DNA of 12,986 bases from a virus. The stretch lies in the UHGV virus genome UHGV-1359266. One strand, written 5' to 3'. A program made the translations under genes and the position numbers. The notes below the pieces were generated by a model that made no database searches, was not told the DNA's origin, and saw only the letters and a program-made list of their open reading frames with translations. Shown here piece after piece: positions 84-12,184 of this stretch; the first letter of the stretch is position 1; each line of letters starts with the position of its first letter.

Positions 84-311
84 ATGGCTAAAGTTGATAT
101 TGACATCGTTGATTTTGAATATATTGAAGAAATTATTCGTAATCGTTATCCTGAACTTAGTATCACAAGCGTACAAGATTCTAAGTTTTGGAGTATTCAA
201 ATCGTTATTGAAGGTCCTCTTGAAGACCTCACCCGCTTTATGGCTAATGAATATTGTGATGGCATGGATGCCGAAGACGCAGAATTTTACATGGGACTGA
301 TTGAACAATAA
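84..311 (+). CDS. hypothetical small acidic early protein (75 aa)
   Basis: ORF with SD AAGAGGA (69-75) 8 nt before the ATG at 84. The overlapping 79..300 frame gives a low-complexity hydrophobic product and is less plausible. No recognisable motif. Confidence 0.5.
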
Positions 312-317
312 TTATCA

Positions 318-335
318 AGGGGCTATCAAGCCCCT
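318..335 (+). other. intergenic hairpin: AGGGGCT / ATCA loop / AGCCCCT, followed by ATTAAAAT
   Basis: Perfect 7-bp inverted repeat with a 4-nt loop, between the stop at 311 and the SD of the next ORF. The tail is A/T-rich but not a clean U-tract, so its terminator status is uncertain. Confidence 0.35.
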
Positions 336-355
336 ATTAAAATGAGGAAAACGTA

Positions 356-736
356 ATGTATATTGGCAAAAAGTATGAACTTATTCCAAGACTTATTGAT
401 ACATTTATTAATTATAGTCCACGTTCTAATTCATCAATAGTTAAAATTATTCAAGATAATGGCGGATGGTTTGAAGTTAAAGAAGTTTTCTTTGCTAATG
501 GATTTAAAGCAGTAAAACACATTGAATGCGCTAATGGAAAGCATTTTTACCTCAAAGATAGACTTTTAGAAATTTGCGAAGACGAATTTCATTGTTTCCG
601 CGAGTATAAAGAACCGACTTCTGAAGAAGATGAAGTCGAAGACAAGATTTCTGGCGTAACAAAAATTCACTGCGTTGTAGACGAAAACAATGTAGATGAA
701 ATTATTGAACTTTTACGAAAAACTTTCAAAAAGTAG
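356..736 (+). CDS. hypothetical protein (126 aa) with scattered Cys/His residues and an acidic C-terminal region
   Basis: ORF with SD GAGGA 7-8 nt upstream of the ATG. Contains HIECANGKHF ... EICEDEFHCF, a possible metal-binding arrangement. No family recognised. Confidence 0.55.
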   Translation: MYIGKKYELIPRLIDTFINYSPRSNSSIVKIIQDNGGWFEVKEVFFANGFKAVKHIECANGKHFYLKDRLLEICEDEFHCFREYKEPTSEEDEVEDKISGVTKIHCVVDENNVDEIIELLRKTFKK

Positions 737-765
737 TTTACAGTAGGGTAGTAGTGTGATACTAT
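736..765 (+). promoter_or_regulatory. T4 early-type promoter candidate: GTTTAC (736-741), 18-bp spacer, TG (757-758), TACTAT (760-765); an 11-bp inverted repeat (744-754 / 762-772) overlaps the -10
   Basis: Seen in sequence. Intergenic, directly upstream of the SD AAGGAG and the ATG at 791. Confidence 0.6.
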
Positions 766-790
766 TACCCTATCAACTAAGGAGAATAAA

Positions 791-1033
791 ATGAGATTAC
801 AACGCCAGAGCATCAAAGATTCAGAAGTTAAAGGTAAATGGTATTTTAATATCATTGGTAAAGATTCTGAGCTTGTTGAAAAAGCTGAACATCTTTTACG
901 TGATATGGGATGGGAAGATGAATGTGATGGATGCCCTCTTTATGAAGATGGAGAAAGCGCAGGATTCTGGATTTACCATTCTGACGTTGAACAGTTTAAA
1001 GCCGATTGGAAAATTGTGAAAAAGTCTGTTTGA
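791..1033 (+). CDS. hypothetical protein (80 aa)
   Basis: ORF with strong SD AAGGAG upstream. Contains a CxxC pair (ECDGCP). No family recognised. Confidence 0.55.
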   Translation: MRLQRQSIKDSEVKGKWYFNIIGKDSELVEKAEHLLRDMGWEDECDGCPLYEDGESAGFWIYHSDVEQFKADWKIVKKSV

Positions 1034-1043
1034 GGAAAATATT

Positions 1044-1376
1044 ATGTCTGACATTCATGTAACTGGAATTTCACAAGTAAACATTCGTTGCCAATTTAAA
1101 ACTGTACCCGGGGTGACTCATATTACTTTATCGCACGACCCATATTCTCGTGGAAGACAGTTAACTGGTGTAATTAAGTTTTTCGGTGGAATTGGTGGTA
1201 ATGAATTTACTATAGGCGATGACGAAATTGTTGGCTGTAAATTAAAAGTTCAAAAGGGCGTGTTAGAACTTTTTAGTGATGAAGTTTTTGATGAAATTTC
1301 ACAAGCAGTTAATAAAGGAATGCTAACGTTAATTAAAATGATTAAAGCTAGCGGATATGTTCCTGATCCTTTTTAA
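1044..1376 (+). CDS. hypothetical protein (110 aa)
   Basis: ORF with SD GAGGA 7 nt upstream; begins 11 nt after the previous stop. No family recognised. Confidence 0.55.
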   Translation: MSDIHVTGISQVNIRCQFKTVPGVTHITLSHDPYSRGRQLTGVIKFFGGIGGNEFTIGDDEIVGCKLKVQKGVLELFSDEVFDEISQAVNKGMLTLIKMIKASGYVPDPF

Positions 1377-1387
1377 TAGGAGATAAT

Positions 1388-1630
1388 ATGATTTTTGTTT
1401 TTGAATTTATGAATGATGAATTCGATTATGCAATTTTTAACGCATTGCATAATCCTAATTTAAGTGAATTTAATGAAATGTTTTCTGACGCTTTGAGTAT
1501 GTCAGAAGAATACTGCGGAGAATGTCAACGTGTTTGTGTGACAGTTTTTGAAAACAAAGAAAAGACATATGAAGAGTTATTCTTTGATGCTAATAAAGCC
1601 AATGAATGGTTTATTGAAAAGGGGTTTTGA
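1388..1630 (+). CDS. hypothetical acidic protein (80 aa) with CxxCxxxC
   Basis: ORF with SD AGGAG upstream. Ends 3 nt before the frd start. No family recognised. Confidence 0.5.
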   Translation: MIFVFEFMNDEFDYAIFNALHNPNLSEFNEMFSDALSMSEEYCGECQRVCVTVFENKEKTYEELFFDANKANEWFIEKGF

Positions 1631-2600: not shown

Positions 2601-3461
2601 ATGAAACAATACCAAGATTTAATTAAAAATATCCTTGAAAATGGCTATGAAACCGATGACCGAACAGGCACAGGAACAATTGCTTTGTTCGGTACTAAAT
2701 TGCGTTGGGATTTAACCAAAGGTTTTCCTGCAGTAACAACAAAAAAGCTCGCCTGGAATGCTTGTATTTCTGAGTTATTGTGGTTCTTATCAGGAAGTAC
2801 TAACGTAAATGACCTGCGTCAGCGTACTCACGGGTCTTTAATTGCAGGGAAAACGATTTGGGATGAAAATTACGAAAAACAAGCAAAAGATTTAGGATAT
2901 CATAGCGGTGAGCTTGGCCCAATTTATGGAAAACAATGGCGTGATTTTGGCGGTGTAGACCAAATTGTAGAAGTTATTGATCGTATTAAAACATTTCCTA
3001 ATGATAGACGCCAAATTGTTTCCGCGTGGAATCCGGCAGAACTTAAGCAGATGGCATTACCACCTTGTCATATGTTCTATCAGTTTAATGTTCGTAACGG
3101 ATACCTTGACCTCCAATGGTATCAACGATCAGTAGATGTTTTCCTCGGTCTTCCATTTAACATCGCGAGCTATGCTGCTCTTTTACATATTGTTGCTGAC
3201 ATGTGTGAACTAGTTCCAGGCGATTTGATATTCTCTGGTGGTAATACACACATTTATTCTAACCATATTGAGCAATGCAAAGAGATATTAAATAGAACCC
3301 CTATGGACCTATGTAAACTCAGTATTAATTGGCCTAATGGATTTAGTCAATGCGATACTGAAACTCAAATGTATTGGTTAACTGAATATATGACAGCACG
3401 AGATTTCGTTCTAAAAGATTATCAGTCCCATGGTGTCTTGAAAGGAAAGATGGCGGTGTAA
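2601..3461 (+). CDS. td: thymidylate synthase (uninterrupted ORF, 286 aa)
   Basis: Catalytic motifs seen in sequence: DRRQIVSAWNP and LPPCHMFYQF (active-site Cys). SD AGGTG upstream. The length equals recalled T4 Td (286 aa), but the ORF is continuous, so no group I intron. Confidence 0.95.
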   Translation: MKQYQDLIKNILENGYETDDRTGTGTIALFGTKLRWDLTKGFPAVTTKKLAWNACISELLWFLSGSTNVNDLRQRTHGSLIAGKTIWDENYEKQAKDLGYHSGELGPIYGKQWRDFGGVDQIVEVIDRIKTFPNDRRQIVSAWNPAELKQMALPPCHMFYQFNVRNGYLDLQWYQRSVDVFLGLPFNIASYAALLHIVADMCELVPGDLIFSGGNTHIYSNHIEQCKEILNRTPMDLCKLSINWPNGFSQCDTETQMYWLTEYMTARDFVLKDYQSHGVLKGKMAV

Positions 3462-6334: not shown

Positions 6335-7513
6335 ATGAGCACAGTTTTTAATACAAATCCAGTTGATGTTTTAAAAGAACCGATGTTTTTTGGTTCAGGT
6401 CTTGGTATTGCGCGTTATGATATTCAACGCCATAAAGTTTTTGAAGATTTGACCGAAAAGCAATTGTCATTTTTCTGGCGGCCTGAAGAAGTAAACTTAA
6501 TGATGGATGCTGCACAATTTAATAAACTTCCTCAGTATCAGCAAAATATTTTTACTAATAACCTGAAGTATCAATCGCTTTTGGATAGCATTCAGGGTCG
6601 TGCACCGTCTGCTGTACTTATGTCATTAATTTCAGACCCAAGCCTCGATACATGGGTTGCTACATGGACTTTTAGTGAAACTATTCACAGTCGTTCATAT
6701 ACTCATATCATGCGAAATCTTTATACTGATCCATCGAAGGTGTTTGATGAGATTGTATTAGATGAAGCTATTATGAAACGTGCTGAATCTATCGGTCGCT
6801 ATTATGATGATGTTCTGATTAAAACCCGTGAATGGGAAAATGCTAAAGAATTTGTAGAACTAGCTAAAGAATCTCCTGATGCCGACTTTCGTTTAAACCG
6901 AGCTATTAAACAAGAGGCCGAAGCTAAACGTGCTTTAATGAAGTCTCTTTACCTCTGTTTACACGTTATTAATGCCTTAGAAGCTATTCGTTTTTATGTA
7001 TCTTTTGCATGTACCTTTAACTTCCATAAGAACATGGAAATCATGGAAGGTAATGCCAAGATTATGAAGTTTATTGCACGTGATGAGCAGCTTCACCTTA
7101 AAGGCACTCAATATATTATTCGTCAACTTCAACTTGGCACTGATGGCGATGAATGGGTTAAAATTGCTCAAGAGTGTGAACAAGAAGCAGTTGATATTTT
7201 CATGGAAGTTAACCGCCAAGAAAAAGATTGGGCAGTTCATTTATTTAAAGATGGCGATGTTCCTGGATTAAATACAAATAGCATGTGGAGCTTTATTGAT
7301 TACTTAACTGTATCTCGTATGAAACAGTGTGGTCTTCCATGCCCAATTACCGATGCTCCGGTTAAACATCCATATCCTTGGATTCGTGAATACCTTAATT
7401 CTGATAATGTTCAATCCGCGCCGCAAGAAGTAGAACTGTCATCTTACCTTGTAGCACAGATTGATAATGATGTTGATGATAAAGTTATGATGAGTTTTAA
7501 AAAATACTTTTAA
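6335..7513 (+). CDS. nrdB: aerobic ribonucleotide reductase small subunit (class Ia beta), uninterrupted, 392 aa
   Basis: Tyrosyl-radical region FSETIHSRSYTHI and the R2-type C-terminal tail SYLVAQIDNDVDD are seen in sequence. Continuous ORF, so no intron. Confidence 0.95.
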   Translation: MSTVFNTNPVDVLKEPMFFGSGLGIARYDIQRHKVFEDLTEKQLSFFWRPEEVNLMMDAAQFNKLPQYQQNIFTNNLKYQSLLDSIQGRAPSAVLMSLISDPSLDTWVATWTFSETIHSRSYTHIMRNLYTDPSKVFDEIVLDEAIMKRAESIGRYYDDVLIKTREWENAKEFVELAKESPDADFRLNRAIKQEAEAKRALMKSLYLCLHVINALEAIRFYVSFACTFNFHKNMEIMEGNAKIMKFIARDEQLHLKGTQYIIRQLQLGTDGDEWVKIAQECEQEAVDIFMEVNRQEKDWAVHLFKDGDVPGLNTNSMWSFIDYLTVSRMKQCGLPCPITDAPVKHPYPWIREYLNSDNVQSAPQEVELSSYLVAQIDNDVDDKVMMSFKKYF

Positions 7514-12124: not shown

Positions 12125-12154
12125 GTTTACTTTACGGTAGAGTTGTGATATTAT
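12125..12154 (+). promoter_or_regulatory. T4 early-type promoter candidate: GTTTAC (12125-12130), 18-bp spacer, TG (12146-12147), TATTAT (12149-12154); inverted repeat GGTAGAG / CTCTACC (12136-12142 / 12157-12163) brackets the -10
   Basis: Seen in sequence, in an intergenic region directly upstream of SD GAGGA and the ATG at 12185. Confidence 0.6.
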
Positions 12155-12184
12155 AGCTCTACCAAAACAAATGAGGAAATTGAA

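Follow-up and report, generated by a model that had tools for sequence, protein, structure and literature searches.

In phage T4 the region around the dihydrofolate reductase (DHFR) gene frd is arranged in the order 32, frd.3, frd.2, frd.1, frd, td, such that three small genes (T4p242, T4p241 and T4p240 for frd.3, frd.2 and frd.1, respectively) separate gene 32 from frd. One of their products, Frd.2, is, along with GoF and MotB.1, one of three T4 early proteins for which an LSm/SH3-like barrel is predicted at the N-terminus (Kim et al. 2025, PMC12152347). More generally, variation in gene content and order is documented for hyperplastic regions bordered by promoter-early stem-loop (PeSL) elements (Arbiol 2010, Comeau 2014; PMC4122927, PMC2839356). 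The subject of the present work is a block of five small open reading frames (ORFs) at positions 84 to 1630 of a 12,986-nt stretch of the virus genome UHGV-1359266, the whole of this stretch being referred to below as the window. The block is the counterpart of the T4 frd.3–frd.2–frd.1 interval with two further genes, ORF4 and ORF5, and is on balance probably best understood as two early transcription units that encode small, non-enzymatic binding proteins within a hyperplastic region.

Judged on its sequence, the window is a segment of a Tequatrovirus. Its first 2.3 kb finds matches in 612 phage genomes, nearly all of them Escherichia, Shigella or Yersinia Tequatrovirus, the best being phage JoYop with 96.7% DNA identity over the full length. 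The JoYop gene string is that of the window, namely gene 32, five hypothetical proteins, dihydrofolate reductase, another hypothetical protein and thymidylate synthase, with the same seven genes found in both. An initial annotation, made from the letters of the DNA alone, had placed the block between gene 32 and frd of a T-even phage, and the JoYop match and the synteny with T4 confirm this placement. Indeed, the window shares with T4 the position between gene 32 and frd, the order and strand of the genes and the two early promoters; Frd.3 and Frd.1 are ~ 99% identical between the two (98.7% and 98.8%, respectively), and DHFR is 86.6% identical to T4 Frd. T4 differs in a diverged N-terminal part of Frd.2, in a mini-ORF before frd.1 and in the lack of ORF4, ORF5 and ORF7, the last a 115-residue frame between frd and td. 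The features of the block, all on the + strand, which is the transcribed strand of the window, are as follows.

11–40, + strand: early promoter P1, upstream of frd.3 and frd.2 (consensus scan; GTTTAC 11–16, 17-nt spacer, TG 32–33, TACTAT 35–40)
84–311, + strand: ORF1, the frd.3 orthologue, 75 aa (PF05798, phrog_1764)
318–335, + strand: stem-loop AGGGGCT-ATCA-AGCCCCT after the frd.3 stop (dG −12.9 kcal/mol, z −3.3; no T-run)
356–736, + strand: ORF2, the frd.2 orthologue, 126 aa (PF03197, phrog_622)
736–765, + strand: early promoter P2, upstream of frd.1–ORF4–ORF5–frd–ORF7–td (consensus scan; GTTTAC 736–741, 17-nt spacer, TG 757–758, TACTAT 760–765)
743–773: 14-bp dyad embedding P2 (dG −17.8 kcal/mol, z −3.9)
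791–1033, + strand: ORF3, the frd.1 orthologue, 80 aa (PF17438 DUF5417)
1044–1376, + strand: ORF4, the DUF7247 gene, 110 aa (PF23905)
1388–1630, + strand: ORF5, the phrog_3183 gene, 80 aa (PHROG profile match)
1634–2236, + strand: frd (DHFR), the downstream anchor of the block (PF00186, E 3e-18; phrog_316, E 4e-57)

The five frames, of 75, 126, 80, 110 and 80 aa, lie exactly where the initial annotation had drawn them, and the Shine–Dalgarno sites that it ascribed to each are present, since a GAGG/AGGAG site can be read directly 6–9 nt ahead of every ATG. The genes behind P2 are tightly packed, with gaps of 3–13 nt that continue through frd and td. In pairwise comparison with orthologues all five are under purifying selection, the ratio of nonsynonymous to synonymous substitution rates (dN/dS) lying between 0.02 and 0.45 as against 0.03–0.25 for DHFR, with Frd.1 and Frd.3 as low as or lower than DHFR. 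From the coordinates, the Shine–Dalgarno sites, the conserved promoters and dN/dS values well below 1 it follows that these are real genes. In other words, the identity of the block is secure, and its genes are genuine, selected and orthologous either to T4 genes or to widely annotated T-even ORFs. These same data bear on the idea that the ORFs serve no purpose for the phage and are carried along in promoter-flanked cassettes as selfish or decaying passengers, which would suit a hyperplastic region, the ORFan cassettes described in the PeSL literature (PMC4122927, PMC2839356) and the absence of ORF4 and ORF5 from T4 at no obvious cost. Purifying selection on all five, with dN/dS down to 0.02–0.1, largely refutes this idea; moreover, each gene is conserved across genera, in 438–1418 of 50,697 phage records, the T4 copies yield protein, and the AlphaFold models of Frd.1 and ORF4 are confident, all of which makes it very improbable.

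Both early-type promoters were given to the base in the initial annotation. P1 and P2 fit the early (PeSL) promoter consensus of PST and T4, TTTACW-N17-TAYWAT (PMC4122927), with a TG placed one base before the −10 hexamer in both, and each is followed by the Shine–Dalgarno site and ATG of a small ORF. When 120 nt were aligned at 17–18 loci, drawn from Tequatrovirus, more distant T4-like coliphages, Klebsiella phage Roth01, Edwardsiella phage PEi20 and Salmonella phage STP4-a, both hexamers were found to be kept in place upstream of frd.3 and frd.1; P1 in particular is positionally conserved upstream of frd.3 at 17 loci from several genera, and the hexamer positions of P1 and P2 hold even at loci with a different upstream gene. 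Lack of early expression, which the initial annotation had named as evidence that would tell against its reading, is not what is found for the T4 orthologues, because all three are seen as early RNA and as protein in time-resolved omics (PMC9697503 and its supplements): frd.3 and frd.2 as early RNA and early protein, frd.1 as early RNA and middle protein.

The preferred account is therefore one in which host sigma-70 RNA polymerase would start at P1 to transcribe frd.3 and frd.2, and at P2 to transcribe frd.1 and the genes for the DUF7247 and phrog_3183 proteins before running on into frd and td. The T4 copies are made within the first minutes of infection. None of the five products would be an enzyme of known class; each would most likely be a small protein that binds stoichiometrically to a host or phage macromolecule and modulates it, and each gene is probably dispensable under laboratory conditions. 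Within the set, Frd.3 and ORF5 are small and strongly acidic, Frd.2 would be a GoF-like protein with an LSm/SH3-like barrel that possibly acts on RNA, Frd.1 a ferredoxin/DCoH-like module displaying a conserved CxxC loop, and DUF7247 a putative orphan fold that has an invariant Cys-Gln and whose gene is usually coupled in translation to frd.1. Several points weigh against this account. That the five are binders and not enzymes is an argument from size and from the absence of matches, and a catalytic or redox-active role is conceivable for both the invariant Cys-Gln of DUF7247 and the CxxC of Frd.1. Early expression is carried over from the T4 orthologues, and for two of the genes, ORF4 and ORF5, T4 has no equivalent. 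Finally, a CRISPRi-ART fitness call for frd.2, albeit a marginal one, conflicts with dispensability.

In contrast to the statement in the initial annotation that none of the five could be assigned to a known family, four have Pfam families and all five have PHROGs. Its view that they are functionally uncharacterised does hold, as all of these families are of unknown function. Searches of PDB, BFVD, NCBIfam and PADLOC gave no characterised or enzyme-like relative, the BFVD and PDB fold search covering some of the five; profile searches of four family alignments against all PDB sequences gave nothing credible; and the literature searched by Pfam, locus-tag and accession identifiers contained no functional study of these genes. 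Nor are the five related to one another, every hhalign probability among them and ORF7 being below 4%. The five products represent five unrelated protein families, restricted to phages. The description of several of them as acidic is apt for ORF1, ORF3 and ORF5, with isoelectric points (pI) of 4.05, 4.94 and 4.11, and less so for ORF2 (5.4) and ORF4 (6.3). Of the CxxC and Cys-His clusters that were also claimed, the CxxC of Frd.1 is conserved, while the Cys and His residues of ORF5 and Frd.2 are not conserved in distant homologues.

Frd.3 (ORF1) matches PF05798 Phage_FRD3 over its whole length (135.8 bits against a gathering score of 28.1 bits, E 7e-40, residues 1–75 on profile 1–75). It carries a net charge of about −13, has dN/dS of 0.04–0.16 and is present in 734 phage records. 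In T4 the frd.3 mRNA is among the abundant NAD-capped RNAs (bioRxiv 10.1101/2024.04.04.588121), and the gene is called ‘Not fit’ in CRISPRi-ART. As a separate observation, Frd.3 (84–308) matches just positions 317–391 of the 391-position phrog_1764 profile, so that some members of that family must either have a long N-terminal extension or be mis-called fusions.

Frd.2 (ORF2) matches PF03197 FRD2 (111.5 bits against a gathering score of 29 bits, E 3e-32, residues 28–126 on profile 2–96), occurs in 760 phage records and has dN/dS of 0.2–0.45. The protein consists of a beta-rich N-terminal domain, an acidic linker and a short C-terminal strand-helix domain. Its identity to T4 Frd.2 is 65.9%, and the divergence lies entirely in codons 1–80 (window 356–595; dN 0.42, dS 1.53); codons 81–126, the C-terminal 46, are near-identical to T4 with a dS of 0.16. 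The N-terminal domain therefore appears to have been exchanged as a module, and the transition between the two parts marks a boundary of recombination inside the gene. In several relatives frd.2 is present as two paralogues. A Cys/His zinc cluster was considered for Frd.2 and rejected, the residues being absent from distant homologues.

With respect to the GoF/MotB.1/Frd.2 family, whose common trait is an N-terminal bent five-stranded antiparallel beta-sheet (PMC12152347), ORF2 is the Frd.2 member: it has the GoF-like beta-rich N-domain, the acidic linker and the C-terminal strand-helix ending in ...LxKxFKK. The LSm-like fold is taken from published AlphaFold models of T4 Frd.2, the N-terminal domain of which is ~ 50% identical to that of the window, and comparison of the Frd.2 alignment with the single T4 GoF sequence by hhalign gives a weak match (probability 13%, pairwise P 0.002, 49 columns). 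Within the family RNA stabilisation has been shown just for the GoF(D25Y) mutant and is not reported for Frd.2, and amber mutants of T4 frd.2 plate normally (PMC12152347). The T4 transcript has served as a stable control for reverse transcription quantitative PCR at 5 min (PMC6070864). In CRISPRi-ART frd.2 is the sole ‘Fit’ gene of T4 among those of unknown function, with a signal that the supplementary table shows to be marginal (score 0.83, p 0.027, individual guides not fit).

Frd.1 (ORF3) is PF17438 DUF5417 (114.2 bits against a gathering score of 23.9 bits, E 3e-33), which is also the RefSeq name for the T4 frd.1 product. It is the most widespread of the set, in 1418 phage records that include ~ 500 Klebsiella phages and siphophages of ~ 49 kb, and among the most constrained, with dN/dS of 0.02–0.14. 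A confident AlphaFold model gives a ferredoxin/DCoH-like fold of the order beta-beta-alpha-[CxxC loop]-beta-alpha, a two-layer sandwich of the beta-beta-alpha-beta-beta-alpha type in which 68 of the 80 residues superpose on a known structure at 2.5 Å. The CxxC (C45-D-G-C48) is nearly invariant in 50 diverse homologues, and the longer motif C-D-x-C-P-x-Y-E-x-G, in the loop after helix 1, is near-invariant. When four conserved metal ligands of a zinc-binding Cys/His cluster were looked for, two conserved Cys were found. Assignment as a pterin-4a-carbinolamine dehydratase (PCD/DCoH) was rejected, as conserved catalytic histidines were not found. In CRISPRi-ART the T4 gene is ‘Not fit’. Between P2 and frd.1, T4 (locus L001) and two metagenomic relatives (L006 and L008) carry an insert of ~ 70 nt that the window lacks, and which holds an unannotated, hydrophobic mini-ORF of 22 codons (MFAPYIMAAVMLVCLYLLIKAC).

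ORF4 is a full-length match to PF23905 DUF7247 (150.3 bits against a gathering score of 27 bits, E 3e-44), with dN/dS of 0.07–0.4. The family is found in 488 phage records, including Klebsiella, Edwardsiella, Serratia and Phapecoctavirus phages. The predicted structure, again a confident AlphaFold model, is an alpha+beta arrangement of a four-stranded sheet plus helices, and as modelled is an orphan fold without known relative. C16-Q17, in an Arg-Cys-Gln context, is invariant, and a search for the four conserved ligands of a zinc cluster yielded this single invariant Cys. In five sampled Tevenvirinae lineages (Tequatrovirus, Kanagawavirus, Gelderlandvirus, Karamvirus and the unclassified Klebsiella phage Roth01) the DUF7247 gene lies directly 3′ of frd.1, overlapping it or 10 nt apart, and this adjacency is kept although the remainder of the interval is shuffled. 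Taken with the CxxC of Frd.1, it might suggest a conserved two-gene module, an early effector pair that depends on thiols or metal and acts on some target in the host, which, if true, would be a new kind of takeover or counter-defence device. Such a module is doubtful. DUF7247 does not directly follow frd.1 in Serratia phage 4S or in Phapecoctavirus, and the majority of phages with Frd.1 have no DUF7247. In Roth01 a hydrophobic ORF of 29 codons lies between frd.1 and the DUF7247 gene (L016, 3919–4008).

ORF5 is phrog_3183 (139.1 bits, E 1e-40, residues 1–80 on profile 1–79), and has no Pfam, NCBIfam or credible PADLOC family; a Cas8b match (E 0.005, 13.6 bits) was disregarded. It is strongly acidic, with dN/dS of 0.07–0.35, and occurs in 438 phage records, nearly all of them > 90% identical. 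Distant homologues of 75–82 aa lie directly upstream of frd in PEi20 and in three T4-like metagenomic genomes (L013–L015). An exhaustive phmmer search against 1.84 billion representative proteins returned the family itself and one spurious Kazal-repeat protein. A zinc cluster (CGEC-x3-C) was rejected, the cysteines being absent from the distant homologues. In one 7.5-kb Logan contig (P0018) ORF4 and ORF5 form an in-frame fusion of 196 aa, accounted for by a single additional T in the T-run ahead of the ORF4 stop (window 1374–1390). This may reflect an error of sequencing; alternatively, the fusion may be natural and would then hint that the two are functionally linked.

The initial annotation had suggested that blocks of this kind serve host takeover or anti-defence, which is a reasonable prior. 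The more specific proposal is that the five include one or more proteins dedicated to anti-defence, for example with acidic Frd.3 or ORF5 as nucleic-acid or protein mimics that block an immune effector. Early expression from strong promoters, dispensability on laboratory strains and the pI of about 4.1 of these small proteins are all consistent with it, as are the patchy occurrence of ORF4 and ORF5 among close relatives and the deeply diverged alleles of the Frd.2 N-domain within one genus, the latter being the pattern that an arms race over a target-binding surface would be expected to leave. However, many T4 early proteins are acidic, all dN/dS values are low and give no hint of positive selection, and Frd.1 and Frd.3 rank with the best-conserved genes of the interval, whereas counter-defence genes typically evolve fast. 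In addition, no characterised inhibitor was similar in the PDB and BFVD searches that were run. A dedicated anti-defence role is thus a possibility, though a distinctly less likely one than the broader account of small early binding proteins. Another proposal, that the P2 genes frd.1, ORF4 and ORF5 contribute to phage folate and thymidylate metabolism as accessory subunits or as regulators, arises because they are co-transcribed with frd and td, and appears improbable.

In terms of novelty the finding changes little, since it mainly re-identifies catalogued T-even genes, which were already known, are ordinary for a T-even hyperplastic region, and had been correctly spotted but under-identified by the initial annotation. 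What it leaves is a short list of targets, namely Frd.1, which is very widespread (siphophages included) and very constrained, with a confident predicted fold and a conserved CxxC, DUF7247 with its putative orphan fold, and the fitness-flagged frd.2. Identifying the binding partners of any of these proteins would close a gap of long standing in the T4 early programme.

Gene content and order in the interval vary between relatives. T4 has three genes; five, together with ORF7, are present in both the window and JoYop; in other Tequatroviruses one further small ORF is inserted; in more distant phages frd.2, often duplicated, comes before frd.3 and frd.1; and ORF4 and ORF5 are present or absent from locus to locus. 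Such variation is as expected of cassettes flanked by early promoters, in other words of PeSL-type shuffling. The window resembles the described PeSL cassettes in its sigma-70-type early promoters flanking variable small ORFs and in the GGGG..CCCC stem-loop after frd.3. This stem-loop (318–335) is conserved in Tequatrovirus loci, with changes in loop and stem that preserve the pairing, and resembles the GGGG...CCCC stem-loops of PeSL elements (PMC2839356), but has no adjacent promoter. Its role may be to attenuate the P1 transcript or to stabilise it; alternatively, it may be what is left of a PeSL element, a ‘half PeSL’. Just upstream of P1 related loci have the gene 32 terminator hairpin, at a position that falls outside the window.

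The window differs from PeSL cassettes at P2, where there is no stem-loop upstream and the dyad overlaps the promoter itself, its spacer pairing with the −10 hexamer and start region; in the published descriptions the stem-loop precedes the promoter and does not span it (PMC4122927, PMC2839356). P1 has no such dyad (z 0.1). Rfam and repeat scans of positions 1–2700 gave nothing relevant. Elsewhere in the window, the promoter at 12126–12154 also carries a dyad (12131–12163, z −5.6), and across the window and loci L001–L019 dyads of 10–14 bp occur in 24 of the 49 distinct T4-type early promoter elements examined. Here too the stem forms between the spacer and the −10 hexamer with the start region (dG −9 to −18 kcal/mol, z < −3), and the outer stem varies in sequence between elements with complementarity kept.

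Downstream of the block, ORF7 (2240–2587, phrog_1928, without Pfam family) sits between frd and td, at the site where the two genes overlap in T4. It is under very strong purifying selection within Tequatrovirus (dN/dS 0–0.045), and has homologues in Roth01, PEi20 and KaAlpha. The td gene of the window (2601–3461) is a single uninterrupted ORF of 286 aa, whereas that of T4 is split by the I-TevI intron (L001, L007). An ORF of 392 aa at 6335–7513, a candidate nrdB from its position, is likewise uninterrupted.

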